A DNA stretch of 64,000 nt from Patescibacteria group bacterium (GCA_038064895.1 JBBTSA010000010.1:182616-246615), one strand, 5' to 3'; counted from the first letter of the stretch, positions 26,651 through 43,000 are shown. Notes: generated by a model from the letters alone, not told the origin. Numbers and translations are program-made.

Positions 26651-29600
26651 TGCTCTACTACTTTATAAATAACTACTTCTTCATTTTCAAATATGTTTTT
26701 TACCAATTTTTCCTTTTCTAATGCTTTTACTTGTTCTATAGCTCCTATATTAAAGATTTTTAATAGATAAATGTATCTTATATTATTTTTTTCCAAAAAA
26801 TTAAACTTTCGGAAATCTAAAATTTCGAAAAAATTTTCAGAAGCAACTATTCTTTTTTTATAATCTGTCAGAAGTATTTGATTCTGCGGCTCATCTTCAA
26901 CAAAAACACCCTTTTTTGACAAAGCTGAAACATAAGCTGTTGAATCATAGATAAAAAGATTGAAGGGCTCCGGAAATATCTCACGAAGTCTTTTATCGTA
27001 TGGATAAGTCAAAACTACTCCTTCATCCTGATTTGATAAAAACTTTAGAGCCTCTATTTCTTTAGAGCTTATATACGCATGAGGTAGAGTGTGAAAATAG
27101 CTACTTGCTGTAGCCAAAGAATTTATAGGAGTAAGTATAAAAACTATCGCAACCAGTATTGGCACTAAAGTTTTAGGCAATCTAAAAATAAAGTGGGTAA
27201 TTACTAAACCTGAAAAAATTGAGCTAGTGTATAAAAGATAATAGAAAAACTGGATGGTATTCCAGGGATTGCCCGACTGAATAAATAAAATCGGTATCAA
27301 ACCGGAAAGAAACGAAAAGATTAAAATAAAAAACAAGGGTGTATCGGATACAATACTCCTTAGTTTAAAAAGTGATAACAAACCAAATACTCTAAAACCC
27401 AAATTTCCCGCTATAAAAATCAAAAGACCTAAAGTGTCTGCCAAAAAAAACTTTAACCATTGACCTAAAGCAGAAGCTGTTGTCCTTGCTATAGAAAGCC
27501 TTACCCATCCCACTCTATCCGGCGAATCAATCATTGAGTGTATAAACCAAAATGGCGCAAAAATCATAACCGCATTTAAGACTTGAAAGTTTGATAAGAA
27601 TAACCAAGCGGATATAGCACTACTTACTATAAAGATTATTAGATAACGCAAATCGGATCTTTTAAAAATTTCAAAAAAAGCTACAACAAGTAGAGATCCT
27701 AAAACTAAAACAGCTCCGTATGCTTTAAATGAAATGAGGCTTCCCGCTAAAACTATAGCCAAAACTATTAAGGATTTAGCTTTTGATTTATATAAAGACA
27801 ATAAAACATGAAAGAGGGTGATTATAATTATCAAGGAAATTGCAAATGGTGGGTTTAAGTTAAATGATATTGCTTGATTTACCCAAAAAGCAGATTCTCC
27901 ACCCAAACCTCTCCCTTTCATAAACTCTACAATCCAGCCAAAACTTCCTGCAAAATATACAAAGAAAAGTGTAAAGATCGCAGTAACTTTCGTTTTTAAA
28001 ACACCAATTCTATCTTTGAATAACCTCCATACAAGATAATATGTGCCAATTCCCACTCCGATGGAAAATAAAATGGGGTAAAATCTAAATAATAAATCTT
28101 CTACGGGTATTTTAGATATAAAATGGGTTGCCGCAATCAACAAATCATAAAAGTAGTGATAATTTTCTAAAGGCATCCCTGCGAAAATCGGGTTTTGGGG
28201 CGGTATACTTTTTGATATTTGATTCACAAGCGCTATATGCCATACTCCGTCATGAGTGTTGGGTCCCCAAAATCCCATTCCGTATCCATAATATAAACCA
28301 CTCCTAAAAGTAGGAATTATTTGAAAAACAGTTCCGCCCACAATTATTAAAAAAGAAGCTATATAAAACCAATCTTGAGATTTTAGAATCTTGAGTTTGA
28401 ATAAGTTATAACTTCTTAAGCGAATAAACAAAATGGCACAAATCAAAATATAAATTAAGCTAAATGATTGTAATTTTAAAAAGCCTAATATATAAAATAC
28501 CCAGCTAAAAATTACTATACCTGAAACTAAAGATACAAACAGTCGTAAAAAGGTGGGTGAGGACCTCTCAAGAATTCTATTTGTGAAAACAATACCCGGC
28601 ATAATGATTGTTAAAAGTAAAAAGACCAAAAAGCGAAAAATTTTAGATACAGTGCCCTCTACAGACCACTTAAAGAAATCTGCCTCGACTTTTGGTCGCA
28701 AATCCCTAATATGTTGAATATTTTTTTCAGTTGCCTCAATAATGACACTATCAATAGAACGGGATTTTCCATCAATACTTATATCTCTTGGCAGAAATTC
28801 TATTCTTCTTTCATTCGAACCCTCATTTATATAACTTACTACGTAACTGTTGTTTTCTTTAACTACTTTTAGCCGGGAAATTTTACCTTCGTCAATCACC
28901 CACTTGTGCCCATAAGTTACGTTATCCAATACTCTTGTTGCAAAAGTTGCAAAATTTACTTCGGAGCATGCTTTAAGGTAGCAGAATTCTTCTTCTTCTC
29001 CGACATACTGACGGATATCTCTAAATATACTTCCATCACTACTAATAAATAACCCTGCCCGATAATATGGATTCATAAACCAAATTGCTTTTTTCCCCGT
29101 ACTCAAAGGGTCATCCGCTATAATTAGATGTTGGGGTGAAAGGTCAGGGAAGGATTGAGAATACCAAGAAGCAAAATCCTTCATTGTAACAATCCTAAGC
29201 TGACCTAGGCGTTGTTTGTCTACAAGCACTTCTATTTGTTTCCTGTATTCAAAACCGTATTTTTCAAAGGAATAGGAATTTTCAAGACCTACGCTAAGGT
29301 GACTAAAACTTCCGAATTGCCCCTTTGTATAAATATCTACTAAGGATCGGAAATAACCGGTGTTAAGCTTATGATAATCCAAATAGTCATTGGATTGCAC
29401 ACTAAAAGTACTTTCAAAAACGCCGTTGCCGTATCCGTTTACGGGATCGCGCGGCGCCCACTGCATCATTACAAGGGGTAATTTATTTTCTTGGGACTTT
29501 GCAGGATGCAAAACATTATTTTTTGCAGGGTAATAAGGTGTGGACCAAAACTGCCCCCAAATTTGGTAATCATCTGTTGTGTATTGATCTGAAACTTCTA

Positions 29601-30129
29601 AAGAGGCTGTGATTCCATATTTTTTTTGTATATATTCAAGTGAGAAGCTATCAATCCACCAGGCTCCAACTGATTTCGGATAAAAGTTAAAAACTTCCCT
29701 AAACTTTTCAAATGCACTATCAATAAGTTTAAGTCTTTCCTCTCTTTCATATCCGCTTAAAAATGCGCTACCGGCAGCATGCCAATTACTGCTTTTATGA
29801 TACTTAACACCGGCTGCTTCGGCCCAAGAAGGTGTAACCTCCAAAAATAATCCCTTCTCGTGATCCGGCAGAGACTTTAGGATACTTGTAACTTCATCCA
29901 CTTTTAGTGCATCAAAACGGATAAGCCAGGTTGCAGGAAGATCAAATTCCTTAAGTATTGTTAATTGTCCCGATACGGCAGTAGCTATTTTTTGTCCTTG
30001 CTCTTGCCAAAAATCTTCACCTCTTATAGGGTTTACAACCGTTACAAAAGAATTTTCCAGAGCTTGAGCAGAACCAAACCCCCAAAAGTAGAGAATAAGA
30101 AATAAAATCAAACCGATCAATTTACTCAT
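26647..30129 (-). CDS. 1160-aa fusion: signal peptide, ~490-aa extracytoplasmic soluble domain, then a ~650-aa 'HDG-W-H' polytopic membrane domain.
   Basis: N-terminal hydrophobic signal 'MSKLIGLILFLILYFWGFGSAQA'. Soluble domain 'LIRFDALKVDE...GAWWIDSFSLEYIQKKYGITASLEV' (a possible deacetylase or glycoside-hydrolase-like barrel, tentative). Membrane domain 'GFWGPNTHDGVWHIALVNQISKSIPPQNPIFAGMPLENYHYFYD'. Confidence 0.5.
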   Translation of the reverse strand: MSKLIGLILFLILYFWGFGSAQALENSFVTVVNPIRGEDFWQEQGQKIATAVSGQLTILKEFDLPATWLIRFDALKVDEVTSILKSLPDHEKGLFLEVTPSWAEAAGVKYHKSSNWHAAGSAFLSGYEREERLKLIDSAFEKFREVFNFYPKSVGAWWIDSFSLEYIQKKYGITASLEVSDQYTTDDYQIWGQFWSTPYYPAKNNVLHPAKSQENKLPLVMMQWAPRDPVNGYGNGVFESTFSVQSNDYLDYHKLNTGYFRSLVDIYTKGQFGSFSHLSVGLENSYSFEKYGFEYRKQIEVLVDKQRLGQLRIVTMKDFASWYSQSFPDLSPQHLIIADDPLSTGKKAIWFMNPYYRAGLFISSDGSIFRDIRQYVGEEEEFCYLKACSEVNFATFATRVLDNVTYGHKWVIDEGKISRLKVVKENNSYVVSYINEGSNERRIEFLPRDISIDGKSRSIDSVIIEATEKNIQHIRDLRPKVEADFFKWSVEGTVSKIFRFLVFLLLTIIMPGIVFTNRILERSSPTFLRLFVSLVSGIVIFSWVFYILGFLKLQSFSLIYILICAILFIRLRSYNLFKLKILKSQDWFYIASFLIIVGGTVFQIIPTFRSGLYYGYGMGFWGPNTHDGVWHIALVNQISKSIPPQNPIFAGMPLENYHYFYDLLIAATHFISKIPVEDLLFRFYPILFSIGVGIGTYYLVWRLFKDRIGVLKTKVTAIFTLFFVYFAGSFGWIVEFMKGRGLGGESAFWVNQAISFNLNPPFAISLIIIITLFHVLLSLYKSKAKSLIVLAIVLAGSLISFKAYGAVLVLGSLLVVAFFEIFKRSDLRYLIIFIVSSAISAWLFLSNFQVLNAVMIFAPFWFIHSMIDSPDRVGWVRLSIARTTASALGQWLKFFLADTLGLLIFIAGNLGFRVFGLLSLFKLRSIVSDTPLFFILIFSFLSGLIPILFIQSGNPWNTIQFFYYLLYTSSIFSGLVITHFIFRLPKTLVPILVAIVFILTPINSLATASSYFHTLPHAYISSKEIEALKFLSNQDEGVVLTYPYDKRLREIFPEPFNLFIYDSTAYVSALSKKGVFVEDEPQNQILLTDYKKRIVASENFFEILDFRKFNFLEKNNIRYIYLLKIFNIGAIEQVKALEKEKLVKNIFENEEVVIYKVVEQ

Positions 30130-31582
30130 TTTTAAACTCCGATAATACTCTCTTAAAATCTCTTAATATTGATCCTCCGACTAAAAGAAAGATTAACAAA
30201 CTGTAAGATATGATACCTAAAAAAATCAGAATGAAAATGGAAACTACCGAAACGGGAATAGTTTCGCGTACAAAAAGCAAAATACCTCCCATTAAAATTG
30301 AAGCAACCAGTGGTTTTCCGGCACTCCCAAATAAACTTATACGTACAAACTTTTTGGAAATTCCCATTGCCACAACCGATGTTAGCCCAACTATTGTAAA
30401 ACCCAAAGCTGCACCGTTTACACCAAAGAAAAAGGCTAAAGGCGGCACCAAAAGCCAAGTAAGAAAAGTCCACATTATCATTAGCCTAAAAGTTATATTA
30501 ATTTTCCCGATTGCATTTAGCATATTTGTCAAAGGAGTAGTTACTGCCGCAAAGGGAACACTTATACCAAGTATGGTTATAGCAAACAGTGCCGGCTGCC
30601 ATTTCTCATATCTTGGGATAACTTGAGTAAGCATTGGTACAAGTGTTAAAAGTCCGATGAGTGTTGGAAAAACCAAAAGGCTAATAAAGAATATAGACCG
30701 TGATAAAAGATATGAAAGCTCTGCTTTTTGATCCTGTATTCTGGAAAAGGCAGGAAAGCTTACTTTGATAATTTGATCCATAAAAAAACGCAAAGGTGCT
30801 TGCGCCCATCTTTGAGCCCATCCTAAAAGGCCCATCCCCGAAGCACCAAGAATCCCCCCTAAAACAATATTAAGACCGTCATCTTTAATCAAAGCCAAAA
30901 ATGTATTAGCCTGGTAAGGAACACCGAAGGTGAAAAGTCGCCGAATAGAACTAAGGTCCATAGAAAAACCAACTTTCCATGGCTGAATCATGTACATTAA
31001 GGTTGCGCCAATCATCCCTCTTGCTAAAACTGCAATTGTAAAGGAAGTAACGCCAAATCCCTGCCATGCAAGATAGACGGCCGTTACATTAAAAATTATG
31101 CTTTCCGCAATTTGAGGAATGATAAGTTTTGCAAAATCAATTTTTCTCTCCAAAAGGATTGACGGAATAGTTTTTAAAGAGGATAAGAAAAAAGAAAATC
31201 CTAGGGCATAAAGTAACCACATAGATTCCTGTGAAAGGTTATAAAAACGTCCGATTGCAGGTGATACTAAAAAAAGCACCAGAAGAATAGATAGGACTAG
31301 TGCTTGCTGGATTGTAAATGTCGTCTTTAATTCATTTTCGGAAATTTGTCCTTTTTTCTGAATTAGTGCTGCTGCAAGTCCGATATCGGAAAAGTATGCC
31401 AAAAAATTAATCACTGCAGAAACAATCCAAAATACCCCGTATTGTGTAACACCCAAGAAAATTGTAAGTATAAAATCTCCTGCCCTGTTTGTAAGTTGCA
31501 GAAAAAAAGTTCTACCTGTTAGAGCGACAATGCTTTTGACAGTACGCTTTTTGACTACATCAAGAGTTATTTCTTCATTCAT
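30122..31582 (-). CDS. MOP-superfamily flippase (Wzx/Polysacc_synt family).
   Basis: 486 aa, ~12-14 TM helices, typical Polysacc_synt N-terminal region. Confidence 0.6.
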   Translation of the reverse strand: MNEEITLDVVKKRTVKSIVALTGRTFFLQLTNRAGDFILTIFLGVTQYGVFWIVSAVINFLAYFSDIGLAAALIQKKGQISENELKTTFTIQQALVLSILLVLFLVSPAIGRFYNLSQESMWLLYALGFSFFLSSLKTIPSILLERKIDFAKLIIPQIAESIIFNVTAVYLAWQGFGVTSFTIAVLARGMIGATLMYMIQPWKVGFSMDLSSIRRLFTFGVPYQANTFLALIKDDGLNIVLGGILGASGMGLLGWAQRWAQAPLRFFMDQIIKVSFPAFSRIQDQKAELSYLLSRSIFFISLLVFPTLIGLLTLVPMLTQVIPRYEKWQPALFAITILGISVPFAAVTTPLTNMLNAIGKINITFRLMIMWTFLTWLLVPPLAFFFGVNGAALGFTIVGLTSVVAMGISKKFVRISLFGSAGKPLVASILMGGILLFVRETIPVSVVSIFILIFLGIISYSLLIFLLVGGSILRDFKRVLSEFKNE

Positions 31583-31585
31583 GAT

Positions 31586-33292
31586 TTAACTTATGGCCTT
31601 AATATAATAAGACGCCCATTTACGCACTTGCTTAAATTGAATGAGCAGCAAACTTACAAATAAGAATAAACCCAGGAGTGTTAACCAGTTGGCGATTACT
31701 CTAATTTGTGTGTCGAAAAGCCTGGCCTCTACTTCATGCTGACCTTTACCCAATATTATGGTCATAAGTCCCAAGCTGTTGTTTTTGTATTCTACACTTA
31801 CTTCCTTTCCGTCAACAAACACTTTCCAGTTGGGAAAAAAGTATTGCGATAAACGGATGATTGTATGAGATAAAACATCAGCTTTAAACTTAATCCGGTT
31901 GGTCCCCTCCTGGAAATCTCTTATTTCTGCATCACCCGTTAGGATTTGAAAACGTGCCTTTGCAAGTTCTGCAGGGGGCTCTTTGGCATATATTGGAAGA
32001 TAATCAAAAATTGATCTTTTTATTTGCTTATCCCAGTTTTCACCGCTTAAAAGCTCCTGATTTGTTATATTGATAAATTCTTCCGGCCGAAAATAGGAAA
32101 AGTTAAGAGTAACCGTTAAAAAAATTATTATTATCCAAAGTTTAGTAAGCCAACTTTTTCCTCTTAATGCCAAGCAAGAAGCACCTGTTACAAACGAGAT
32201 AAGAAATATTATTATTAAAAGAAATCTCCATGGAAATTGTAAATATTTTAGCGGATCCACCATATTCCATATAAATTCGGAGCGAGGATGGACCATAAAA
32301 ATTGCAAAAAGAGCGGCAGAAGATAAAACAAGGATTACTCTGGCTACCCAAGGATTCTTTTTCCAAAAAAACTTGATGCAGAAAAGTGTAAGAACCCATC
32401 CTAAAAGATGTATCCATCCGATTTGAAAAGATATCTTCTCCTGCTCTGCTCCCGGAACCTCTCTTATAGATGATCCATAACCCCAATCCCTTTTTATAAA
32501 TAACTCTTTTATGCCTTTAAAGTGCTCCGTGTAACCAAAATATCCGTACGTTGTAGTATCGATATGTACCAAGTTTTTTTCAAATACCATAGGGAGTGTA
32601 TAAAATGCTGAAATAGTAACTCCAAGCAGTAATGATAAAAAACTAAAATACAAAAATCTCATCCCTTTATCCTTGAAAAATAAAATGAGTATCCAAAGAA
32701 ACATAATTGGTAAAAATATCATGGTAGAAAGATTGTGAGAAAGAATCAGGCCACTTGTGCAAATGGTAACCAAAAGCATATTTGAAATACTCGTTTGTTC
32801 CTTAAGTTTTACAAAAGCCCAAAATATTGCCGGAAAAAACATTAATGCCCACATCTCTCCCATTGCTCCTCTCACATAAAAATCCAGGGCGTGATATGGG
32901 GCGAAACTATAAAATATTGCGGATAAAGCTCCGCCTTGCCTTCCCCAAAATTTCCGTGCTAAAAGATACATAAATACATATGATCCTAGAAAAGATACGG
33001 CAAATATCACCTTGCTGGAAAAAATCAAGTTTTTGGATATTACATAAATAACCTCTCCAAAATAATACGGTAAGGGAGCATAATAGTTAAAAATCGGATA
33101 GCCATATAACCCCCCTAAATCAGGAACCCATCTGCAAGGAATCTGTCCGTCTTTAATACATTTATCCATCTCAAAAAGCCGAATCGGAGAAACATCATCA
33201 TGATGTTTAAAATAAGGTGCTGCAAAAAGGGGCCAAAGTAATCCGGCACTTAAAATTAAACCTATTAGAAAAAATTTATTTTTCAAAATCAT
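31586..33292 (-). CDS. Polytopic membrane protein, 'CRWVPD' family paralog 1. Putative GT-C/YfhO-like glycosyltransferase, possibly the PTPS-related membrane family (tentative).
   Basis: 'HHDDVSPIRLFEMDKCIKDGQIPCRWVPDLGGLYGYPIFNYYAPLPYY'. ~11 TM helices plus a C-terminal ~180-aa soluble domain and a final TM. Confidence 0.45.
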   Translation of the reverse strand: MILKNKFFLIGLILSAGLLWPLFAAPYFKHHDDVSPIRLFEMDKCIKDGQIPCRWVPDLGGLYGYPIFNYYAPLPYYFGEVIYVISKNLIFSSKVIFAVSFLGSYVFMYLLARKFWGRQGGALSAIFYSFAPYHALDFYVRGAMGEMWALMFFPAIFWAFVKLKEQTSISNMLLVTICTSGLILSHNLSTMIFLPIMFLWILILFFKDKGMRFLYFSFLSLLLGVTISAFYTLPMVFEKNLVHIDTTTYGYFGYTEHFKGIKELFIKRDWGYGSSIREVPGAEQEKISFQIGWIHLLGWVLTLFCIKFFWKKNPWVARVILVLSSAALFAIFMVHPRSEFIWNMVDPLKYLQFPWRFLLIIIFLISFVTGASCLALRGKSWLTKLWIIIIFLTVTLNFSYFRPEEFINITNQELLSGENWDKQIKRSIFDYLPIYAKEPPAELAKARFQILTGDAEIRDFQEGTNRIKFKADVLSHTIIRLSQYFFPNWKVFVDGKEVSVEYKNNSLGLMTIILGKGQHEVEARLFDTQIRVIANWLTLLGLFLFVSLLLIQFKQVRKWASYYIKAIS

Positions 33293-33294
33293 GT

Positions 33295-34959
33295 TTAAAT
33301 CTTCCTAAAATACTTTAAACTTAAGCATAATGATACTAAAAATCCAAGTAATGAGGCAAAATCCAATGCAAGCTTATAGGGAGTTTCTGCAAAAAATACT
33401 TCCAGTTTATGTACTCCTTTAGGAACTAGAACGCTAATCTGGCCAAAAGGAGAGCCCGCTAATATATTTATATTCTTCCCATCCAGCTTAGCAAGCCAAC
33501 CCGGAAAATAATATTTATTAAAGTTTATTAAAGTTTCTTCATTTACATATACGCTTACAATAAAATGTAAATCATTGATTTTAATAACCGGGGCAATCGG
33601 ATTGCGCAGTGAAAAGATTATTGGATAAATCATATCAGGCCTTTGTTTGGAAGTTTTTGGCAGCCTTAAGTACTCTTCCTGATGCTGTAAATATTCCATA
33701 CTTACCTTTGGGTAGGGAATATATTTATTTAAATAATAGTCATCTAATCTTCCTAGAAAATGTTCAGGCTTAAAATATGACATTGTAGGATAAACTACAA
33801 AAGCCAAAAGAATAATTAAAATTATTTTTTCAAATTTCGACTTATCAAAAATAATAACAAGCAGGGGAATAAAAAAAGTTGTAAGAATTAAAAAACGCCA
33901 CGGAAATTGAAAGTATGGCATAAGCGGTAAACTATTCCATACAAAAGTTGATCTATGGTTTGTGAAAAAGATTGCAAGAAAAATCCCCGAACAAACCCAA
34001 ATAAATAATACCTTTTTGTCTTTGCTGATTCCTTTCCATTTCAAAAATAATAAGCCGGAGGCAAAAATTAGCACCAAAAGACTGGAATAGCCCAGAAAGA
34101 AAGACATTCCGTCTCCCTCGCCGGGAACCGATGCCCCGTAACCCCAATATGGGGTAAGAAGCTGTCGAATTGCAGGAAAATGATCATAAAACTTAAAGAT
34201 TGTGTCATATTTTACCAAGTTACTTTCTGTTATGGCCGGTAACCAAAAAAACGCGCTCATAAGTAGTGATAAAAAAATCATTAAAACCGATTTCCTAAAA
34301 AACACGCCTTTGTAGGATTCTTTCAAAAATTGTAAAAGAAGATAAAGTAAGACAAAAGGAATAAACATATATGCCGTAATATTGTGCGACAACACTAGGG
34401 AAGCAAGGGCTAGGGCTCCAATTCCTACCCACTTAAAATTTCTCTGCTGATTTAGCTTTGTTATTGATAAAATAACCAAAGGTAAAAATATAAAGCTTAA
34501 AACCTCCCCTATTGCTCCTCTTACATATAGGTCCACAGCCCTATAGGGTGTATAAATATATAAAAGTGCGCCTAAGAAAGATAAATTTGCCTTTACGAAT
34601 TCCCTAAGCAGAAGGTACATAAATATTCCGGACAGCGGTATAGTTATAAAAAATAATGCTTTGATACTATCAACAAATGAAAAACCGAAAAAAAGATGGA
34701 AAATTTCCGCAATATAAAATGGCAGTGGAAAAACAAAATTAAAAAGAGGATACCCGAAACCAAAACTCAAATCAGGAACAAACCGCGCAGGAATTTGTCC
34801 CAACTTTAACACTTTATCCATCTGGTTAAGCCAGGCGATATGCACTTCGTCCGAGGCCCCGTAAAAACCCGGCACAAAAAGCGCCCAAACAGCCGGTATG
34901 GAAAATACTAAAATTAAAAAGACCCAATATTTATTTAAAATTTTTTCTAATTTTTCCAT
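33295..34959 (-). CDS. 'CRWVPD' family paralog 2.
   Basis: 'SDEVHIAWLNQMDKVLKLGQIPARFVPDLSFGFGYPLFNFVFPLPFY'. Confidence 0.45.
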   Translation of the reverse strand: MEKLEKILNKYWVFLILVFSIPAVWALFVPGFYGASDEVHIAWLNQMDKVLKLGQIPARFVPDLSFGFGYPLFNFVFPLPFYIAEIFHLFFGFSFVDSIKALFFITIPLSGIFMYLLLREFVKANLSFLGALLYIYTPYRAVDLYVRGAIGEVLSFIFLPLVILSITKLNQQRNFKWVGIGALALASLVLSHNITAYMFIPFVLLYLLLQFLKESYKGVFFRKSVLMIFLSLLMSAFFWLPAITESNLVKYDTIFKFYDHFPAIRQLLTPYWGYGASVPGEGDGMSFFLGYSSLLVLIFASGLLFLKWKGISKDKKVLFIWVCSGIFLAIFFTNHRSTFVWNSLPLMPYFQFPWRFLILTTFFIPLLVIIFDKSKFEKIILIILLAFVVYPTMSYFKPEHFLGRLDDYYLNKYIPYPKVSMEYLQHQEEYLRLPKTSKQRPDMIYPIIFSLRNPIAPVIKINDLHFIVSVYVNEETLINFNKYYFPGWLAKLDGKNINILAGSPFGQISVLVPKGVHKLEVFFAETPYKLALDFASLLGFLVSLCLSLKYFRKI

Positions 34960-36595
34960 AAAAAATTAAATAACAAACCAAAAGAATAGAAACAAAAGAG
35001 ATAATATTGCCGGCTCTTCTTATGGGTGTATCATAAAATTTACCTAAAATTTTATGGTTGCCACCCTCAAGCATAATACTTACTCTACCTAAGTAATTAT
35101 CGGATCTTTGGTCAATCTCTTTCCCTTCCTCTGTTACTTTCCAGTTTGGAAAATCATATACGGGAAATTCGATCAAAGCAGGAGATTTAACACTTATTTT
35201 TGCCTCAAAATTATTGGAGGTTTTTTTAAAATAATAAATTTCCGCATCACCTGTTACAACAAGTGGTTTATCCCCTGTTTTCTCATTCGGCTCTATTGCT
35301 CCTTTTGGCAAATAATCCATGATTGATGCCTTCTGCTGTATCTCCCAAAGCTCCCCTGAAAGTTTTTCCCTATCGGTAAGGTAAGGATAAAATTTCTCGG
35401 GTTTAAAATAACCCCAGTTTAACAAAACCGTTGCTAAAACCAAAGCAAAAAAAGTTACCCTGACAAAGGAGGGTTTAAAAGTGTTAAAGAGAAATCCTGC
35501 CAAAAGGGAGGATGTAAAAATACTTAAAGATAGAAATCGCCAGGGAAATTGAACAAATCTTAACATCCCGATTGACTCCCAAATAAATGCCGATTTGTTA
35601 TGTGTCATAAAAAGCGAGAATGCAAAAAATACTAAAAGAGCAAAATATATAAAGAATATTCTCCTATTTTTTTTAAATAGCAAAGTAATAATGGATAGAG
35701 CTGCCAATATCCAGTGAGGCCAACCTACCTGGAAGGATATACTATCTAAAGGTCCCGGGAAAGATGCACCATATCCCCAGGATCTTTCAAAAAGTAATTG
35801 ACGAATCGTTACAAAATGTGCCCTAAAATCCAAGTCAAGCCTTACAAGATTCTCTATCTGCACCAGATCCTTTTCAAAAAAAGCAGGTATTATAAAAAAT
35901 GCCGATAGACCAACTCCTAAGCCTAACGAAAATATCAAAGACTTAATATAAACTACTTTTTTTCCCCAAAAAATTATTATAAACAAAACTAAAATTAGTG
36001 GTGCAAAAATAAGTGTCATGATGGTATGCGAAGTTAAGAATGCGGCAAATGAGAGGGCAAGACCTAATATAAATTTCAAAGAATTTTCCTTTAATATTTT
36101 AAGAGCAAAATAGATTACAAGGGGTATGACTACTATTGCAAAGCTTTCGGAAACAGCTCCCCGTACATAAATATCAAGAGCTCTATATGGAGCGAATATA
36201 TACAAAATAGATGCCAAAAGAGCAGGATACAAGGACATAAATTCTTTTGCTAAAAGAAACATTGAGAAGCCTGCAAAATATGCGGCTGCGAAAAATAAAA
36301 ATTTTGCACTCCCTACAAAGCCTAAAATATAGCTTGCCAAAGCGCCGATATAATACGGGAAAACATTATAATAGTTAAAAAGAGGGTAACCGTTTCCATA
36401 TCCCATGTCCGGAACCCACCTGCAAGGAATTTGCAAATCCGAAAAACACTTTCTCATCTCAAAAATCCTCATTACCTGCAAATCGTCATGATGTGAAAAA
36501 TAGCCGGATAAAAAAGTAGGCCAACTGACAAAGATAGATAGAACCGCGATGAAAATATAAAACCAATATTTTTTAAAAAAATTTTTTAAATCCAT
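34931..36595 (-). CDS. 'CRWVPD' family paralog 3.
   Basis: 'HHDDLQVMRIFEMRKCFSDLQIPCRWVPDMGYGNGYPLFNYYNVFPYY'. Confidence 0.45.
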   Translation of the reverse strand: MDLKNFFKKYWFYIFIAVLSIFVSWPTFLSGYFSHHDDLQVMRIFEMRKCFSDLQIPCRWVPDMGYGNGYPLFNYYNVFPYYIGALASYILGFVGSAKFLFFAAAYFAGFSMFLLAKEFMSLYPALLASILYIFAPYRALDIYVRGAVSESFAIVVIPLVIYFALKILKENSLKFILGLALSFAAFLTSHTIMTLIFAPLILVLFIIIFWGKKVVYIKSLIFSLGLGVGLSAFFIIPAFFEKDLVQIENLVRLDLDFRAHFVTIRQLLFERSWGYGASFPGPLDSISFQVGWPHWILAALSIITLLFKKNRRIFFIYFALLVFFAFSLFMTHNKSAFIWESIGMLRFVQFPWRFLSLSIFTSSLLAGFLFNTFKPSFVRVTFFALVLATVLLNWGYFKPEKFYPYLTDREKLSGELWEIQQKASIMDYLPKGAIEPNEKTGDKPLVVTGDAEIYYFKKTSNNFEAKISVKSPALIEFPVYDFPNWKVTEEGKEIDQRSDNYLGRVSIMLEGGNHKILGKFYDTPIRRAGNIISFVSILLVCYLIFYGKIRKNFK

Positions 36596-38249
36596 ATTTT
36601 ATGCTTAAAAAAGCAGTTAAGAAAAGGCTTACCAAGCTTATTATATTACCCAAAGATCTGACAGGAGTATCTTTAAGTTGTACTTCTATCTTGTGTTTTC
36701 CTTCCTCTATATTAAATGTTATCAATCCCAAACAATATTCTTCTCTCCTACAATCATTGTTTATGTGATGGATCAGCATCCCGTCCACCAAAACCTGCAT
36801 TCCGGGAAAATCAAAAAGCGGAAGCCGCAAAGTTGCCGCCTCTTTTACTAAAGCTTCTCCTTTTTGAAAATTGCTCCCTTTTTGATAACTTAAAAACTCT
36901 ACTTCCCCATCCAAAACATCAGGCAAAAGAGGTGCTTTTTCATTTGGAGGAAGTTTTGCAAAAATAGGTAAATAATCAAAAATGCTAATAGTTAGCTGCT
37001 TCTCCCAAGACTCACCGGAAAATTTATCCTTATCTGAAATATTTAACCATTCTTTTGGTTTAAAAAATGCCCCGTGTAATAAAATCAAAGAAAGAACTAC
37101 TACTAAAGTAAAAATAACTGCATAATTTTTGTTTAACTTTGAAATTAAAAAGGCCGAAATTGCGCCAAAGATAGAGAGTAAAAAAGCAGAGGGCACTAAA
37201 AACCTCCAGGGGAATTGTAACCACGCAAGAGTAGATATTTTTTCCCAAAAAAAGTAGGAGCGCTGATGCATTAAAAATAAATATATGGACTCTAAAGCAA
37301 AGAGCACCCACAAGGTTATGGAAAGTTTTTTGTATTTTTTGTAAAAGGTGAAGGATAAGAAAAGTGCCAATAAAGCAACTATCCAATGGACAATTCCCGC
37401 TGATAAAGAAACTTCATCAAAAAGACCAAAAACAGAAGATCCATAATCAAAATAATTTGAAAAAAGAAGTTGTTTAATGCTTACAAAGTGTTGCCTATAG
37501 TCAAAATACCCTCCAAGCAGTGTCTCAAGGTGTACATACTTCTTTTCAAAAATAAACGGCAAGATATAAAAAGCGGATAACCCTATCCCTAAAAGTACTC
37601 CGGAAATTATTTTGTAAAACATCTTCCATTTTTTTTCCAAACTTATTATTGTTAAAATCCAGACTAAAAGTATAGGGAGAAAAATAAGGGTTGTTAAATT
37701 GTGGGTTGTAATTAAAAGCGCTAATGAGACGGCAAGCCAAAGAAGATACTTTGTTTTCCCTATCCTTATAAGTTTTAGGGATGACCATAAAAGAAGCGGT
37801 AAAAATATGAAAGCTAAAAATTCACTCAAAGAACCTCTGACATATACCTGAACTGCTTTTACAGGAACTATTGTATAAAGAATTGATCCTAAACAAGCGG
37901 CATAGTCGTTTAAAAAAGATTTTAAAAAAATAAACATAGTCAGCGCGGAAAGTATAAAACCTAAAATAAAAAGAAGTTTTACCGAATCTATAATCTGTAT
38001 ACCAATCAGACTAAATATACCCCCTATATAATAAGGTAGAGGGGGATAATAGTTAAACTGTGGATAACCGTATTGATACCCCATGTCCGGAACCCACCTG
38101 CAAGGAATTTGAAAATCTTTTAAACAGGCAACCATCTGGTGAATCCTGAAAGCCTGAAGATCATCCTGCATTGGAAAAAAACCCGGCCTTAAAAGCTGGT
38201 AAAAAGTTAATAAATTAACCAAAATTGTTAAAATCAGCCAAAACCTCAT
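36573..38249 (-). CDS. 'CRWVPD' family paralog 4.
   Basis: 'MQDDLQAFRIHQMVACLKDFQIPCRWVPDMGYQYGYPQFNYYPPLPYY'. Confidence 0.45.
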   Translation of the reverse strand: MRFWLILTILVNLLTFYQLLRPGFFPMQDDLQAFRIHQMVACLKDFQIPCRWVPDMGYQYGYPQFNYYPPLPYYIGGIFSLIGIQIIDSVKLLFILGFILSALTMFIFLKSFLNDYAACLGSILYTIVPVKAVQVYVRGSLSEFLAFIFLPLLLWSSLKLIRIGKTKYLLWLAVSLALLITTHNLTTLIFLPILLVWILTIISLEKKWKMFYKIISGVLLGIGLSAFYILPFIFEKKYVHLETLLGGYFDYRQHFVSIKQLLFSNYFDYGSSVFGLFDEVSLSAGIVHWIVALLALFLSFTFYKKYKKLSITLWVLFALESIYLFLMHQRSYFFWEKISTLAWLQFPWRFLVPSAFLLSIFGAISAFLISKLNKNYAVIFTLVVVLSLILLHGAFFKPKEWLNISDKDKFSGESWEKQLTISIFDYLPIFAKLPPNEKAPLLPDVLDGEVEFLSYQKGSNFQKGEALVKEAATLRLPLFDFPGMQVLVDGMLIHHINNDCRREEYCLGLITFNIEEGKHKIEVQLKDTPVRSLGNIISLVSLFLTAFLSIKYGFKKFF

Positions 38250-38255
38250 AATAAA

Positions 38256-39734
38256 TTAAGGCAAAACTTGATATAAAACCGTAGCATCCCCTTTACCATA
38301 TAAAGGTTTAGCTTTGGGGTATTCTTTTATAAGTTTGACTGCTGAAAGACTACCTTCAAGGCTGTTTTTATTGCCCGCAAAGAAAGTTAAATTCTTGGAT
38401 GATGCTTCCCTTAATTGAGCTGAAATTGTGGCATGGGAGCCTATAACGGAAATCTCTTCTTTATCAAGATAAATATATAAACCATCAGGCAAGGTTCCAA
38501 AAAATCCTTCTGTACCAACAATCACTTTCCCCTCTTTTTTTCTTTCCACTAAGTAGGCTGCAATCTCTTTTAAGCCATATCCTGCTGTCCACATTTCAAA
38601 ATATCCTTTTCTTTCCTCTTGGGGTAAGGACTTTGGCGGAGGATTTGTCAAAAGCTCATAATCAAACCAGAGAGGAAGAGGTAGTAAAAGGATTAAAAGT
38701 AAGAAGGGTGAGATTTTTTTGGAAATTCTTTCTACTGCATATGCACCCAATATAAGAAGAAGGGGTATTGAAGGAAGTAAATACCTGGCTGTAAAAGTTC
38801 TAAGGAAAGCCATTTCTATAAGCAGTGGTATTGCTGCCCAAGCTAAAACCAACCACCCTAATCGATTTTTTGTCTTTACCAAAAACCACAAACCAACTAA
38901 CCAAGAAACAAGTATTGGCCAAGTAAATAATTTCGGGAACCAATCAACCATATCTCTAAAGTGTGGTATAAAAGGATCAAGAGGTCTACCTGCAAGTTCT
39001 AAAGGGGAAAAAAGATAATCTGCATTTCTTGAAGAAAGTAAATGAAAATTGGGTCCAAGCCTCAAAGCATTGTACAAAAAAACGGCAATAATTATTGCAA
39101 CTGCCCAAAATAAAAATAATTTCAAAAGAGCATATTTATCCCCTTTGATTCTTTTAAAAGCAAGTATTGATGCCGGCAAAAGTAATAGATTTAAAACAGC
39201 AGGAGTTTTAGTAAGCCAAGCTCCCCCAAGTATGAATCCTAAAATCATTGCCAGATCCAACCTGACCTTTTGAGCAAGCCATATAGCAAGAAATAAGGTC
39301 CAAACAGTAAATGCTGAAAGCATGGAATCAACAAGAGCCATTCTGTCAAAAAAAACAGTGTAAGGAACTAGGGAGTAAAGTAAAGCTGCCCAAAGGCCAA
39401 CACGTAAACTAAAGACTTTCCAACCTAAGGCAAATACACTAATCACTGTTGCAAATCCGCTAACCACAGACAAAAATCTTCCTGCAAATAAAGGATCTTC
39501 AAAAACTTTAAATAAAGGTATCATGCTCCACATAAACAGAGGTGTTTTACCATCTGAAAGTGGTAAAAATCTTAAAGTTGGCTCACTTCTCATAACTTGA
39601 GCCCATCTAATATAAATTCCCTCATCTGCAAAGATAGGCTGCAAAGTTAAGTTTGGAAGCCTTAAAAGAAAATAAACAGAAACTATAATAAGGAGGATTC
39701 CTATCTCTAGTCTGTGTTTTGTAATCAAGTTCAC
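38256..39734 (-). CDS. ArnT/PMT (COG1807)-like GT-C glycosyltransferase, a subfamily distinct from the 4915-16272 array.
   Basis: 'FADEGIYIRWAQVM' first-loop DE motif, ~12 TM helices, C-terminal soluble domain. GTG start. Confidence 0.6.
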   Translation of the reverse strand: MNLITKHRLEIGILLIIVSVYFLLRLPNLTLQPIFADEGIYIRWAQVMRSEPTLRFLPLSDGKTPLFMWSMIPLFKVFEDPLFAGRFLSVVSGFATVISVFALGWKVFSLRVGLWAALLYSLVPYTVFFDRMALVDSMLSAFTVWTLFLAIWLAQKVRLDLAMILGFILGGAWLTKTPAVLNLLLLPASILAFKRIKGDKYALLKLFLFWAVAIIIAVFLYNALRLGPNFHLLSSRNADYLFSPLELAGRPLDPFIPHFRDMVDWFPKLFTWPILVSWLVGLWFLVKTKNRLGWLVLAWAAIPLLIEMAFLRTFTARYLLPSIPLLLILGAYAVERISKKISPFLLLILLLPLPLWFDYELLTNPPPKSLPQEERKGYFEMWTAGYGLKEIAAYLVERKKEGKVIVGTEGFFGTLPDGLYIYLDKEEISVIGSHATISAQLREASSKNLTFFAGNKNSLEGSLSAVKLIKEYPKAKPLYGKGDATVLYQVLP

Positions 39735-39741
39735 CCTACTA

Positions 39742-40126
39742 TTGTACGTCCGTAAGCAACTAGAGGCAAGCTCTTTGGTGTATTATTTTATTATGGATAA
39801 AGAAATTGCTACATTTGGTACTGGCTGTGGTTGGCCATCCTTTGATGAGGAGCATCCTGATTCTTTAAAAAGACTTCCAGATCTCGAAGACCCTGAGCAA
39901 AGTCGTACTTCGATTCCACTCAGTACGACCCTGAGTGTTGATCGAATGGGTCGAAGGGCTGACTGGGGAAAGAGTGGAAATCCAATGTGCAAATTGTGGA
40001 GCACACCTTGGTCATGAATTTAAAGGGGAACATTTAACTTCAAAAAATACCAGACATTGCGTAAACTCCCTATCCATAAAATTTATCCCAAAAGATGAAA
40101 AACTACCTTCCATACTTGCCTCTTAA
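39742..40126 (+). pseudogene. msrB: msrB (peptide-methionine (R)-S-oxide reductase) remnant, N-terminally truncated and frame-disrupted.
   Basis: Frame 1 carries '...FGTGCGWPSFDEE'. A different frame from 39935 carries '[33 protein letters not shown]...[11 protein letters not shown]', the MsrB 'GCGWPSF...R.EV.C..C.AHLGHVF...RYC(I/V)NS' signature. Only ~15 codons precede GCGWPSF, where ~50 are expected. Confidence 0.6.
39853..39934. repeat. ~82-nt palindrome-containing insertion inside the msrB remnant.
   Basis: Deleting 39853-39934 joins '...GCGWPSFDEE' to '[18 protein letters not shown]' in frame, with spacing colinear to B. subtilis MsrB (19 residues between F and R-x-EV). The insert has the 8-bp inverted repeat agtcgtac/gtacgact and the direct repeat 'gaccctga' at 39888 and 39927. 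Confidence 0.35.
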
Positions 40127-40852
40127 ATCATTAATTCTAATTCTTACCATATCATAAATTGCAGCTGCTGCATCTTTAATAACCTGTACTCTTTCCGTAT
40201 CAACATATTTCCATTCCACATCCACTTCTGCAATTTTAAACCCATATTTTTTTGCCAAATATAAAATCTCCACATCAAATCCGGCATTGACTGCCCCACC
40301 TTTAAAATGAAGCACCCCCCACTCCCCTTTTATTTTTGGAATAATTTTTCCAACTACCTTTTTATTAAAAGCCTTAAACCCGCACTGTGTATCTTTAAAT
40401 GAAAGCCCAAGAATAAGTCCTCTTAATATAGAGAAAGACCATGCTGCAAATTTCCTAACTGCCGGTGCTCCCGCTCTTCCATGTCTTAAGCCAATAACCA
40501 AATCAAAACCTTCTTCAAGCTTTGGAATAAATTTATCCATTTGATCAATTGGTGTTGCCTGATCCATATCTGTAAATAAAACTATGTCTCCTCTTGACTC
40601 CTCCATACCTCTCATAACTGCCATTGCCTTTCCTCCATGGGAAACTTCTATCAATTTCCACCGCTTTTTTCCTTTGATGAAGTTTTCTATCAATCCTTTT
40701 GTTTGATCTTCCGATCCATCATCAACAATAACTACTTCATAACTTACTCCACTTTTCTCCATATATTCTTCCACCTCATTTAGTACTCCCTTCCTCAAAT
40801 TTCTCTCCTCATTATATGCGGGTATTACTAAAGACAAGTTAATAGTTTTCAT
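40103..40852 (-). CDS. GT2 polyprenyl/dolichyl-phosphate sugar synthase (DPM1/ArnC-like).
   Basis: '[14 protein letters not shown]...[12 protein letters not shown]...FTDMDQATP...[11 protein letters not shown]'. Confidence 0.75.
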
Positions 40853-40855
40853 TTT

Positions 40856-43000
40856 TCAGTTTTTAACTTTTAATTCTTCAGGATTATGTATCAATTTGTA
40901 AATTCTTACTCCATTTACTTCCCACTCCTTTTCAACTATTGCCCATCCAAAGTGGGAAATTTCCTGTTTAGGATGACCTACAGGGTTGCAAACAGGATCC
41001 TCACAAACAACAAAAAGCTGATCTGTTTTTGTAAAAGGTAATTGCTGTGGTTTATGTCCAAACTCATCCAAATAAAACTGGTAAGACGGATCATAATTTC
41101 TTTCTGCTAGTAAAGCAAAATTAAAGGGTCTATACTCCGATTGTTCAATGATAAACTTTGCAACATCCTTGGCTCTTCCAAGTTGATTATTTGGAGGATT
41201 TTTAAGAGGACTCTTTTCAAGATTAAGAAAAATAAGAGTTATGATTAGAAGTCCTAAAATAAGAGTTTTAAATTTTTTTGATATTTTAAGAGTTGCCAAT
41301 GAGCCAAAAAGAAGAAAGGGCACAGGATTTAAAAATCCCAAATAATGATCGTAGATGTCCTTTTGGTAAAAAGAAACTCCTAGAAGTCCTACAATAAGCC
41401 ATACCCCCAAAGCAAATGTTGGCCAGCTTTTTCTGAAAAGGGCTAAAAGTATTAGAATTGATAGAATTAAAGCAAGCTGCATATTTTCCCCAGCCATATA
41501 TCTTCCTATTAAGTTTTCCGAAAAAATTTGAGGGATCTTTTTAAAATTTTCAAATATGTTCCCTGAAACTGCGTTTGAAGTTGTAAAAAACTCCCTTATT
41601 GCTCTGTAATTTAAAAAATTGTGTTTAAGGTCAAACATTAAAAGTGGCGACATTACAACTAAAAATACAACTACTGCTCCTACAGTCCCCTGCCAAAAAT
41701 ATCTCCCCTTTTTTGTAATAAATTCAAAAATCCAAAAAATCCCAAGTATCGGAAGCAAAATTAATGCAAGGTAATGCATTTGTAAAGCCGCAGCGGCGGA
41801 TGCTCCTGTTAAAATTAACCACCTCGAATTCCCTGTGGAATGAGCTTTATAAAAACCTAATACCGCAAGTAATGCAAAAAAGGGAGTGGGATTAGGATTC
41901 CAGGAAAAATTTGAATAATTTATTGTCACGGGTGATATTGCGTAAAAAAAACTTGCAATAAGTCCGCTCATCCTTCCAAACCAAACTTTCCCAAAGTAGT
42001 ATATTAGAAATACACAAGTAACTCCAATTAAAGCATTCATTACGGAAGCCGAAACGGGGTTGAGGTTTGTTAGTACCATGGGTATAAACATCATGTAATA
42101 ATAGAGAGGCCCCAAATAAATATTTCCTACGGATGATGGGGGACCAATGGCTGGAAAATTTTTACCCTTCACCATATCTTGAACAATCAAAACATCTCTG
42201 CCCTCATCACCTAAAAATAGCATGTACTCATCTATTCTATAAAGACGAAAGAAAGCGGCCAGAACTAAAACACCTATTAGAAGTAAAAAAAGAAATTTTT
42301 GATCCTTCAGTTTCCACCAAAGCCTTAAAAGATCAACATACGAGCGGATAATTACTGTAAGAGTTGCACCGGTTGGCTTTCCTGAAAGTCTTGGATAATG
42401 ACTAACCCCAACTTGCGCAATTTTAAATCCGGCCTTTTTTACCTTTATTGCAAGTTCCGCATTTATCATTGCCCCACGGGTTGACTCAAGATGAGGAATT
42501 TTCTCTAAAACATTTTTTTTAATCATCTTAAAACCGCAGTCAACATCTCTAAATGTTAATCCAAAGAATATAAAAAGTGAGGCCTTCCAGCCTTTTTTAA
42601 ATAAAATCCGCAAATATGGATCCTGCCTTTTAATGCGGTATCCCAGGATAAGATCATGCTCTTCAATTTTTTCTAAAAATTTTTCAACTTCCGCAAAATC
42701 AAACTGTCTGTCTCCATCCGTATAACAAACAGTGTCGTATTTTGCATTATAAAACCCCGATTTTAATGCTTCTCCATATCCTAAATTTTTCTCATGATGA
42801 ATTACTTTAATCTTGGGATTGTCTTCGGAAAGCCTATCTGCTATTTGTCCTGTTTTATCTGATGAACCATCATCAATAAGCAAAATCTCATAATCTATTT
42901 TTAAATTATTTAATACAGAAATTGCTTTTTCTACACTTTGCTGAACGTTTCCTTCCTCATTATATAGAGGGAAAAATACAGATAGATTTTTAACTGGCAT
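40856..43000 (-). CDS. Bifunctional fusion: N-terminal GT2 polyprenyl-phosphate sugar synthase (~230 aa) plus C-terminal ArnT/PMT-like GT-C membrane glycosyltransferase (~480 aa).
   Basis: N-terminus 'LSVFFPLYNEEGNV...LLIDDGSSDKT...YTDGDRQ...FRDVDCGFKMI'. C-terminus multi-TM 'LFLGDEGRDVLIVQDMV...YYFGKVWFGRMSGLIASFFYAISPVTINYS', homologous to 48909-50414 and 61763-63238. Confidence 0.65.
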   Translation of the reverse strand: MPVKNLSVFFPLYNEEGNVQQSVEKAISVLNNLKIDYEILLIDDGSSDKTGQIADRLSEDNPKIKVIHHEKNLGYGEALKSGFYNAKYDTVCYTDGDRQFDFAEVEKFLEKIEEHDLILGYRIKRQDPYLRILFKKGWKASLFIFFGLTFRDVDCGFKMIKKNVLEKIPHLESTRGAMINAELAIKVKKAGFKIAQVGVSHYPRLSGKPTGATLTVIIRSYVDLLRLWWKLKDQKFLFLLLIGVLVLAAFFRLYRIDEYMLFLGDEGRDVLIVQDMVKGKNFPAIGPPSSVGNIYLGPLYYYMMFIPMVLTNLNPVSASVMNALIGVTCVFLIYYFGKVWFGRMSGLIASFFYAISPVTINYSNFSWNPNPTPFFALLAVLGFYKAHSTGNSRWLILTGASAAAALQMHYLALILLPILGIFWIFEFITKKGRYFWQGTVGAVVVFLVVMSPLLMFDLKHNFLNYRAIREFFTTSNAVSGNIFENFKKIPQIFSENLIGRYMAGENMQLALILSILILLALFRKSWPTFALGVWLIVGLLGVSFYQKDIYDHYLGFLNPVPFLLFGSLATLKISKKFKTLILGLLIITLIFLNLEKSPLKNPPNNQLGRAKDVAKFIIEQSEYRPFNFALLAERNYDPSYQFYLDEFGHKPQQLPFTKTDQLFVVCEDPVCNPVGHPKQEISHFGWAIVEKEWEVNGVRIYKLIHNPEELKVKN

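Follow-up and report, generated by a model that had tools for sequence, protein, structure and literature searches.

Four tandem PF10131-type GT-C paralogs in a glycan-biosynthesis island of a Microgenomates/Daviesbacteria-like bacterium

YfhO proteins act together with a GT2 glycosyltransferase that makes a C55-P-linked sugar and with a flippase (PMC8035078). They move N-acetylglucosamine (GlcNAc) from C55-P-GlcNAc onto lipoteichoic or wall teichoic acid (PMC8035078, PMC5836110), and the YfhO homologs PgtC2, PgfM1 and PgfM2 O-glycosylate Ser/Thr-rich protein regions (PMC12041528). PF10131 (PTPS_related) is placed in Pfam's GT-C clan (CL0111) and is listed there with function unknown (PMC7801869). 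Here we describe four tandem genes for PF10131-type proteins, C1 to C4, in a stretch of 64,000 nucleotides from Patescibacteria group bacterium (GCA_038064895.1 JBBTSA010000010.1:182616-246615), which in its full length is called the window below. The host is a groundwater candidate-phylum bacterium, Microgenomates/Daviesbacteria-like.

Enzymes of the GT-C_A class share a conserved module of seven transmembrane (TM) helices and a first lumenal loop of two helices that carries the catalytic base, while basic residues in loops hold the donor phosphate (PMC13503287). The duplicated GT-C_A mannosyl- and glucosyltransferases ALG3, ALG9 and ALG12 (also ALG6, ALG8 and ALG10) each add one defined dolichyl-phosphate (Dol-P) sugar to a flipped lipid-linked glycan, after which STT3 acts (PMC13503287). 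We found no papers on the function of PF10131, or on GT-C enzymes in Patescibacteria/Microgenomates. The original prediction for this locus, made from the sequence, held that function is established for no member of such a family. For PF10131 this stands; for YfhO it does not, as GlcNAc transfer and O-glycosylation are established.

Paralogy and family membership

Four back-to-back proteins had been predicted, and all four were confirmed as open reading frames (ORFs) on the minus strand (Table 1), with a gap of 2 nt between C2 and C1. Identical calls for the four genes were obtained on the public source contig, which comes from the Hainich groundwater metagenome. The proposed four-way paralogy was confirmed by BLASTP as well. 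Pairwise identity is 30-40% over ~550-574 aligned residues (E 1e-65 to 1e-122), with C3 40% identical to C4 (E 1e-122) and 38% identical to C1 (E 1e-114). Judged by sequence similarity, which is far past chance, C1-C4 are true paralogs.

C1 is 100% identical to a protein (P0001) deposited at NCBI as 'MAG: 6-pyruvoyl-tetrahydropterin synthase-related protein [Patescibacteria group bacterium]', and most of its close relatives, at 61-70% identity, belong to Candidatus Daviesbacteria. Many C1 relatives are likewise labelled as related to 6-pyruvoyl-tetrahydropterin synthase (PTPS) in NCBI or by precomputed Pfam matches. There is no PTPS enzyme domain in C1-C4, so the deposited name is misleading. 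Against PF10131 itself, C1, C2 and C4 score 39.7, 27.0 and 33.9 bits, above the gathering score of 26.4 bits, and C3 scores 15.9 bits, below it. C3 is counted as a member by homology because it is 38-40% identical to C1 and C4. Matches to YfhO (PF09586, 24.2 bits) and PMT_2 (PF13231, 17.7 bits) were found only for C4, both under the respective gathering scores (28.5 and 26.1 bits), and C1-C3 have no YfhO match. The GT-C-type layout that had been proposed, PTPS-related or YfhO-like, is borne out by the PF10131 scores of three of the four proteins and by the architecture that they have in common with YfhO (see below).

Profile-profile comparison adds more distant relationships. An alignment (hhalign) of the family with the window's eight PMT_2 paralogs has a probability of 95.7% (E 1e-8), and the homology spans TM1-TM5. 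In this alignment the 'HDD' of the family falls on the 'DE' motif of PMT_2 loop 1, and 'YVRGxxxE' falls on 'sRxxxE'. The N-terminal part of the family aligns with the window's own YfhO protein with a probability of 65%. Going by these profiles, C1-C4 are relatives of YfhO and of PMT_2/ArnT at the superfamily level and lie outside both families. A WWD or W[WY]DxG motif is absent from all of C1-C4, and none of them matches PF02516. Membership of the oligosaccharyltransferases (OSTs) is ruled out by the absence of WWDxG.

The family is large. An exhaustive profile search gave 18,617 representative clusters (at 50% identity) at E <= 1e-3 and 5,869 at E <= 1e-30. Public annotation already carries the PF10131 assignment, and arrays of several copies are frequent in the lineage; C1-C4 are in this respect ordinary members of a catalogued enzyme class. 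Family members also occur as multi-unit polypeptides, such as P0130, which has 3329 aa and six matched stretches; the giant forms are possibly gene-calling artefacts. In other fusions (among P0121, P0122, P0130, P0144, P0126/P0131/P0137/P0159/P0209 and P0261) the partner is an N-terminal GT2, a PMT_2 or C-terminal tetratricopeptide (TPR) repeats. The fusions of GT2 to PF10131 were considered as a pointer to the donor and dropped, the fused GT2s being heterogeneous.

Fold, topology and conserved outward-facing residues

C1 was modelled with AlphaFold2 (AF2) from a 32-sequence alignment. The model has a mean predicted local distance difference test score (pLDDT) of 84.8 and a predicted template-modelling score (pTM) of 0.88. 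When it was compared with the PDB by Foldseek, 21 of the 23 best matches were GT-C enzymes, with probabilities of 0.99-1.00 for the first 21 matches and E from 4.9e-4 to about 0.05. They include yeast and human STT3, PglB, AglB, AftD (root mean square deviation, rmsd, 6.2 Å), ArnT (5f15, rmsd 6.4 Å), AftA, Pmt4 and EmbC. Transporters of the major facilitator superfamily (MFS) reached a probability of 0.13 at most. The structural comparison that the original prediction had proposed as a check found glycosyltransferases, and not transporters, as the best matches, and on the predicted model C1-C4 have the GT-C fold. Sequence searches of the PDB with a profile of the four paralogs, a profile of 80 members and one PMT_2 protein of the window returned no GT-C chain and only chance matches (E > 0.3), and gave no residue-level sequence bridge to a solved structure.

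Hydropathy, the AF2 helices and the distribution of Lys and Arg (K+R) lead to the following layout. The N-terminus is inside and is followed by TM1 (residues 6-24), a 64-residue loop 1, TM2-TM11, a domain of ~130 aa, TM12 (529-551) and a basic tail. Over 80 diverse relatives, K+R amounts to 0.313 in the predicted inside loops vs 0.083 in the outside segments. Each inside loop is individually enriched, and parity agrees when it is read from either terminus. The predicted order of ~11 TM helices, a domain and one terminal TM is supported by all three kinds of evidence, with the turn between TM2 and TM3 placed by parity. The architecture of C1-C4 is that of a shortened YfhO, with an 11-TM core, a mostly β-sandwich outside domain of ~130 aa and one terminal TM anchor.

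Loop 1 carries the family's signature. Invariant in all four copies are D32, Q50-I-P52, R54, V56-P-D58, G64-Y-P66, F68-N69, P75 and Y77, and the N-terminal motif that had been described as shared is real to this extent. Its first element, 'HHDD', is confined to C1 and C3, the same position reading ASDE in C2 and MQDD in C4. What is constant at this site is the acidic pair. C2 also deviates in the later parts of the motif (QIPARFVPDLS, GYPLFNFV). Among the 80 relatives, D32 is conserved in 95% and R54 in 100%. The AF2 model has two helices in loop 1, at residues 35-47 and 73-86.

The polar residues conserved throughout the family are D32/D33, R54, D58, R141, E146, H186, E238, H257 and R356. Among the residues with a conservation of at least 85-100% in the 80 relatives are D32, Q50, P52, R54, D58, R141, G142, E146, H186, E238, H257 and Q352-F-P-W-R356. 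All of these lie in or at the edge of predicted outside loops. Because the conserved polar residues are all kept in all four window copies, none of C1-C4 looks like a pseudoenzyme. The idea that the invariant acidic, His and Arg residues and the motif face the extracytoplasmic side agrees with the positive-inside analysis of the 80 sequences, which predicts just that. Set beside the GT-C_A description, the two loop-1 helices are present, and the D32 acid sits 2-3 residues before the first helix, not within it. By its match to that description, D32 may be the catalytic acid. Positions that are fixed within orthogroups and differ between them make up 20% of the columns in extracytoplasmic loop 1, 10% in extracytoplasmic loop 4 and 9% in the C-terminal domain, vs 0-4% in the TM blocks. 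The concentration of such positions in outside loops fits a common chemistry combined with different substrate recognition.

The C-terminal extracytoplasmic domain spans residues 401-528 in the AF2 model, with helices at 411-414 and 417-428 and strands at 448-525. It is shorter than the ~180 aa originally estimated, and it is not especially divergent, as mean identity between the paralogs is 32% in this domain, vs 28% in TM8-11 and 35% in TM2-7. The final TM anchor that had been predicted after it is present (TM12). Foldseek gave partial matches to β-sandwich accessory domains of glycoside hydrolases. The C-terminal region aligns with the C-terminus of the window's YfhO (hhalign probability 84.5%, E 7e-6, 83 columns), and the equivalent region of P0177 matches positions 756-822 of the YfhO model. 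The domain and the last TM are, by these alignments, homologous to the C-terminal end of YfhO.

An ordered cassette in a conserved gene module

We compared the array with 80 related loci from species-representative genomes. The scan for tandem runs covered 87 sources, namely the window, the duplicate contigs L001, L002, L004 and L006, and the related loci. The longest run was four copies in 8 sources, three in 24, two in 20 and one in 35. In the Daviesbacteria-like genomes L011, L012, L016, L043 and L086, which have four-copy arrays, each protein is 52-66% identical to the window copy at its own position, vs 28-40% to the window copies at the other positions. Positional orthologs of C4 are 53-66% identical to it in L011, L012, L016, L043, L044 and L086; the corresponding ranges are 52-60% for C3, 51-58% for C2 and 57-65% for C1. 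Three-copy arrays consist of C4-, C3- and C2-like genes, and two-copy Daviesbacteria have the C1 ortholog beside Wzx together with a fifth type. The relative order C4-C3-C2-C1 is not violated by any confidently assigned member. It is retained even in P0121, a metagenomic protein of 1093 aa in which a C3-like unit is fused to a C2-like unit. Such a fusion is topologically feasible because each unit begins and ends in the cytoplasm.

From these sequence comparisons, the array is an old collinear cassette that shows no recent or lineage-specific diversification. The four copies had originally been taken to suggest diversification of acceptors or glycans. Position-specific orthologs were found in other genomes instead, and a fixed division of labour fits them better.

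Most of the informatively titled loci are from Microgenomates (Daviesbacteria, Woesebacteria, Shapirobacteria, Amesbacteria, Collierbacteria and Blackburnbacteria), and, as far as the titles of the retrieved loci show, the subfamily with the CRWVPD/GYPxFNYY signature is centred on this group. Many records of metagenome-assembled genomes (L007, L008, L012, L013, L015, L016 and others) are titled 'uncultured Gammaproteobacteria bacterium' (binchicken/SRP co-assemblies); their loci are 60-64% identical to C1 and have Daviesbacteria-type synteny. Such titles seem to be placeholders or taxonomic errors, and no proteobacterial distribution is implied. A PF10131 copy upstream of the C1 ortholog in a Daviesbacteria relative (L006, 8352-10008) is broken into ORFs of 153, 219 and 136 aa, either as a pseudogene or through assembly frameshifts.

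The genes around the array (Table 1) form a conserved module, which we counted in 82 related loci, many of them truncated. The PMT_2/ArnT-like partner is present in 64/82 loci and stands directly upstream of the array in 43/82; the Wzx partner is present in 60/82 and stands directly downstream in 38/82. The best NCBIfam matches of the small GT2 are PgfS, dolichyl-phosphate hexose transferase and ArnC, all far under the equivalog cut-offs, and the N-terminal domain of the GT2-PMT_2 fusion is closest to ArnC, PgaC and PgfS. The dTDP-rhamnose genes lie just upstream of the GT2 group. No tRNA genes were found.

Table 1. Coordinates of the four paralogs, two of their segments and neighbouring genes in the window (aa, amino acids; bit scores are for the Pfam or NCBIfam models named).
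Feature	Position	Strand	Description
C4	36573..38249	-	558 aa, first PF10131-type GT-C paralog of the array; ORF call
C3	34931..36595	-	554 aa, second paralog; overlaps C4 by 23 nt; ORF call
C2	33295..34959	-	554 aa, third and most divergent paralog; overlaps C3 by 29 nt; ORF call
C1	31586..33292	-	568 aa, fourth paralog, always adjoins the Wzx gene; ORF call
C1 residues 30-71 (HHDD...QIPCRWVPDLG..GYPIFNYY)	33080..33205	-	conserved part of extracytoplasmic loop 1, proposed catalytic loop; translation verified
C1 residues 401-528	31709..32092	-	extracytoplasmic C-terminal domain: two short helices, then β-sandwich, then terminal TM (529-551); AF2
Surface protein, predicted	50786..52012	-	408 aa; N-terminal signal peptide or TM, ~45-aa Ser/Pro-rich tract, C-terminal TM anchor; no Pfam match; edge of the island
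GT2 + GtrA/DPMS transmembrane fusion	44173..45357	-	PF00535 73.8 and PF04138 71.0 bits; syntenic in Daviesbacteria relatives
GT2-PMT_2 fusion	40856..43000	-	714 aa; PF00535 96.8 and PF13231 44.8 bits; in 53/82 loci
Small GT2	40103..40852	-	249 aa, candidate donor-making enzyme; PF00535 84.1 bits; in 59/82 loci
PMT_2/ArnT-like GT-C	38256..39734	-	upstream of the array, 6-nt gap; PF13231 40.9 and PF02366 27.4 bits
Wzx/MOP-type flippase	30122..31582	-	downstream of C1, 3-nt gap; PF13440 174 and NCBIfam MOP flippase 126.8 bits
1160-aa protein	26647..30129	-	predicted CE4-like polysaccharide-deacetylase fold (N-terminal) and STT3-like GT-C membrane domain (C-terminal); AF2 and Foldseek; in 58/82 loci
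670-aa polytopic protein	24638..26650	-	overlaps the 1160-aa gene by 4 nt; no Pfam/NCBIfam match; homologs in 26/82 loci
Second PMT_2 in the same run	23028..24641	-	

The genes from 23028 to 43000 look like one long operon, as suggested by ORFs that abut or overlap. A promoter and terminator scan of 22000-41000 gave counts that match the shuffled expectation (70 vs 66.3 and 16 vs 15.2, respectively), so the operon inference rests on the packing of the ORFs. The 1160-aa protein has no Pfam match. Its AF2 model is moderate (pLDDT 68.5), and Foldseek matched it to STT3 (E 7e-7) and to CE4 deacetylases (E 4e-5), with TMt 0.55-0.64. By eye it has no obvious WWDxG. An invariant 'GPNTHDGVWH' (residues 622-631) is a candidate for its loop-1 acid motif. 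When aligned as single sequences with the PMT_2 and PF10131 profiles, the 1160-aa and 670-aa proteins both gave hhalign probabilities of < 3%.

The module is part of an almost 50 kb glycan-biosynthesis island (776-50414) with at least 19 GT-C-type ORFs. These are ~12 PMT_2-like proteins, a PIG-V-like (2816-3976) and a PIG-M/GT87-like (16281-17387) protein, YfhO (20190-22556), the four PF10131 proteins and the STT3-like 1160-aa protein. Two Wzx-like flippases (1542-2828 and 30122-31582) are encoded in the island as well, together with at least eight GT2 domains, one GT1 and dTDP-rhamnose genes. It is a very large investment for a small-genome bacterium of the Candidate Phyla Radiation (CPR). 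In the relatives L003 (1934-2578) and L005 (1803-2447), whose islands keep the same synteny in other respects, a Y1-type transposase (PF01797) and a NUDIX gene lie between the GT2 + GtrA gene and the GT2-PMT_2 fusion, a site occupied in the window by a weak PMT_2-like ORF that runs in the opposite direction (43023-44171). At the edge of the island, the predicted 408-aa surface protein reaches 83% S+T in its best 30-aa stretch. By analogy with the streptococcal Ser/Thr-rich regions that YfhO-type enzymes glycosylate, it is a possible acceptor of O-glycosylation.

Possible roles and known systems

On balance, we lean towards the view that C1-C4 are catalytically competent GT-C transferases of PF10131 that use polyprenyl-phosphate-linked sugars and have fixed, non-redundant roles in one surface-glycan pathway. 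Each enzyme would take a sugar carried by polyprenyl phosphate at the outer leaflet of the cytoplasmic membrane and pass it to a cell-surface glycan or glycoconjugate that is still growing. Extracytoplasmic loop 1 opens with the acidic pair D32/D33, which could be the catalytic base or a metal ligand, and the invariant basic residues R54, R141, H186, H257 and R356 could grip the lipid phosphate. As old paralogs, the four would divide fixed tasks between them, e.g., different linkages or acceptor positions. Their likely partners, in a pathway encoded by one operon, would be the cytoplasmic GT2s, the PMT_2-type GT-C, the Wzx flippase and the protein with CE4 and STT3-like parts. The nearby GT2s, which are closest to polyprenyl-phosphate sugar synthases, and the GT2 + GtrA/DPMS fusion provide a context suggestive of an isoprenoid-phosphate donor. 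There is precedent for such a division of roles in the paralogous GT-Cs PgfM1 and PgfM2, which are non-redundant and belong to one streptococcal Pgf operon (PMC12041528).

Several observations weigh against this view or fit it poorly. The literature search yielded no biochemical data on any PF10131 member. Only positions ~1-298 to 1-316 of the 621 in the PF10131 model are covered; as only the N-terminal half of the model is matched and the C-terminal half differs, C1-C4 are a shorter subfamily. In the AF2 model, DSSP assigns residues 89-129 to one continuous helix, so that the turn between TM2 and TM3 (113-119) comes from parity. The likeness to solved GT-Cs is moderate, with template-modelling scores of 0.39-0.46 and 9-13% identity. 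The top structural matches are OSTs, which use pyrophosphate-linked donors, so that a phosphate-linked and a pyrophosphate-linked donor are both possible. Of the five GT2 domains that occur in fusion with family members, one is PgfS/ArnC-like, and the other four come closest to rhamnosyltransferase, EpsD or MftF types. No initiating phosphoglycosyl transferase was found within the window. Copy number ranges from 1 to 4 among the relatives, so not all four steps are universally needed. Finally, the data at hand fit sequential action on one glycan and parallel action on several acceptors alike.

Such parallel action, in which each paralog decorates a different acceptor (wall polymers, lipids or Ser/Thr-rich surface proteins), comes near the 'acceptor diversification' of the original prediction; we regard it as possible but doubtful. 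Listeria, Lactococcus and Bacillus run several separate systems of GT-A, flippase and GT-C, and the acceptors known for YfhO-type enzymes are teichoic acids in some cases and Ser/Thr-rich proteins in others. Separate acceptors would agree with a copy number that varies among genomes (runs of 1 to 4 in the 87 sources), with the two-copy Daviesbacteria that hold a C1 ortholog and a fifth type, and with group-specific conserved residues in the outside loops and the C-terminal domain. The window itself encodes a surface protein with a 45-aa Ser/Pro-rich tract, and its 19 or more GT-C-type proteins suggest many acceptors. Strict collinearity, position-specific orthology across genera and co-transcription-like packing are, however, more typical of one pathway. 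The fusion of a C3-like with a C2-like unit also speaks against separate acceptors, as does the number of donor-synthase-like GT2s nearby, which at two or three is fewer than one per GT-C.

In a more far-reaching reading, the cassette of GT2s, PMT_2, C4-C3-C2-C1, Wzx and the protein with CE4 and STT3-like parts would be a bacterial counterpart of the lumenal ALG line. Here Wzx would flip a lipid-linked precursor, the four PF10131 enzymes would lengthen it on the outer side of the membrane in a fixed order with polyprenyl-phosphate sugars, and the STT3-like protein would transfer the product en bloc to a protein or wall acceptor; the CE4-like domain may modify the glycan. We think this detailed scheme unlikely. 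If true, it would give PF10131 its first function and reveal an extracytoplasmic assembly line in ultra-small CPR bacteria.

Rather unlikely, in our judgement, is that C1-C4 are themselves en-bloc transferases, ligases or polymerases (OST-, WaaL- or Wzy-like) acting on pyrophosphate-linked oligosaccharides flipped by Wzx. The top Foldseek matches (STT3, PglB and AglB) would agree with this, as would the Wzx gene directly downstream in 38/82 loci. The operon also shows no recognisable gene for Wzy or an O-antigen ligase. A few relatives have weak precomputed cross-matches to STT3 (PF02516) or Wzy_C (PF04932), and most GT2s fused to family members resemble builders of glycans linked to lipid pyrophosphate. 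However, C1-C4 lack WWDxG and the α/β periplasmic domain of the STT3 type and instead have the 130-aa, mostly β-sandwich domain. The monophosphate users ArnT and AftD come within tenfold of the OST matches in E and have better rmsd, and in sequence profiles C1-C4 show affinity to PMT_2 and YfhO, both of them families with monophosphate donors. A better candidate for en-bloc transfer is the separate 1160-aa STT3-like protein of the operon, and four consecutive polymerases or ligases would be unusual.

Least probable by far is that C1-C4 are inactive as transferases, whether as transporters, scaffolds or degenerate pseudoenzyme leftovers of duplication: C3 lies under the Pfam cut-off, C2 is the most divergent copy and the family is without biochemical evidence, but transporter folds scored at most 0.13, every family-wide conserved polar residue is kept in 4/4 copies, orthologs at 51-66% identity elsewhere imply long-term purifying selection, and the ORFs are intact with the same gene calls on the public source contig. 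The Foldseek scores and the retained polar residues were the grounds for rejecting both the transporter and the pseudoenzyme reading.

General knowledge of GT-C enzymes is unchanged by these findings. What they show for the CRWVPD/GYPxFNYY subfamily in Microgenomates is an ordered and conserved cassette of several paralogs in a fixed module of GT2, GT-C, Wzx and STT3-like proteins, with outward polar residues and with the positions that distinguish the paralogs in outside loops. In a large family without a characterised member, C1-C4 are a defined set of targets for a first functional assignment, and they help in understanding how small-genome CPR bacteria build their cell surface.

Among known systems, YfhO (of B. 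subtilis, S. aureus and Listeria, with CsbB/GtcA, and the streptococcal PgtC2, PgfM1 and PgfM2) shares with C1-C4 the GT-C core with its extracytoplasmic acidic motif and the homologous C-terminal β-domain and TM. C1-C4 differ in being ~230-300 residues shorter and in scoring under the YfhO gathering score, and the window has a separate YfhO gene of its own. The flippase beside C1-C4 is Wzx-type, unlike those of YfhO systems, though a GT2 + GtrA/DPMS fusion lies ~6 kb upstream of the array. PMT_2/ArnT proteins are connected to C1-C4 by profile homology in TM1-TM5, by the structural match of ArnT and by PMT_2 genes in the same operon. C1-C4 are set apart by their own loop-1 signature, QIPCRWVPD...GYPxFNYY, and by the β-domain and terminal TM, which are not found in the window's PMT_2 proteins.

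The mycobacterial EmbC-EmbA-EmbB and Aft enzymes offer an analogy, as tandem paralogous GT-Cs that carry out non-redundant steps of wall-glycan synthesis with a polyprenyl-phosphate sugar and have a C-terminal extracytoplasmic domain of the carbohydrate-binding type. AftD, AftA and Emb are among the structural matches, but C1-C4 have no match to PF04602 or PF12250, are much smaller, and belong to another organism with another wall chemistry. The ALG enzymes of the endoplasmic reticulum lumen are a conceptual parallel, since a flippase, several GT-C paralogs and an STT3-like protein are likewise encoded in the operon here. The parallel goes no further than analogy: homology was shown for the GT-C fold only, and the STT3-like partner is without an obvious WWDxG.

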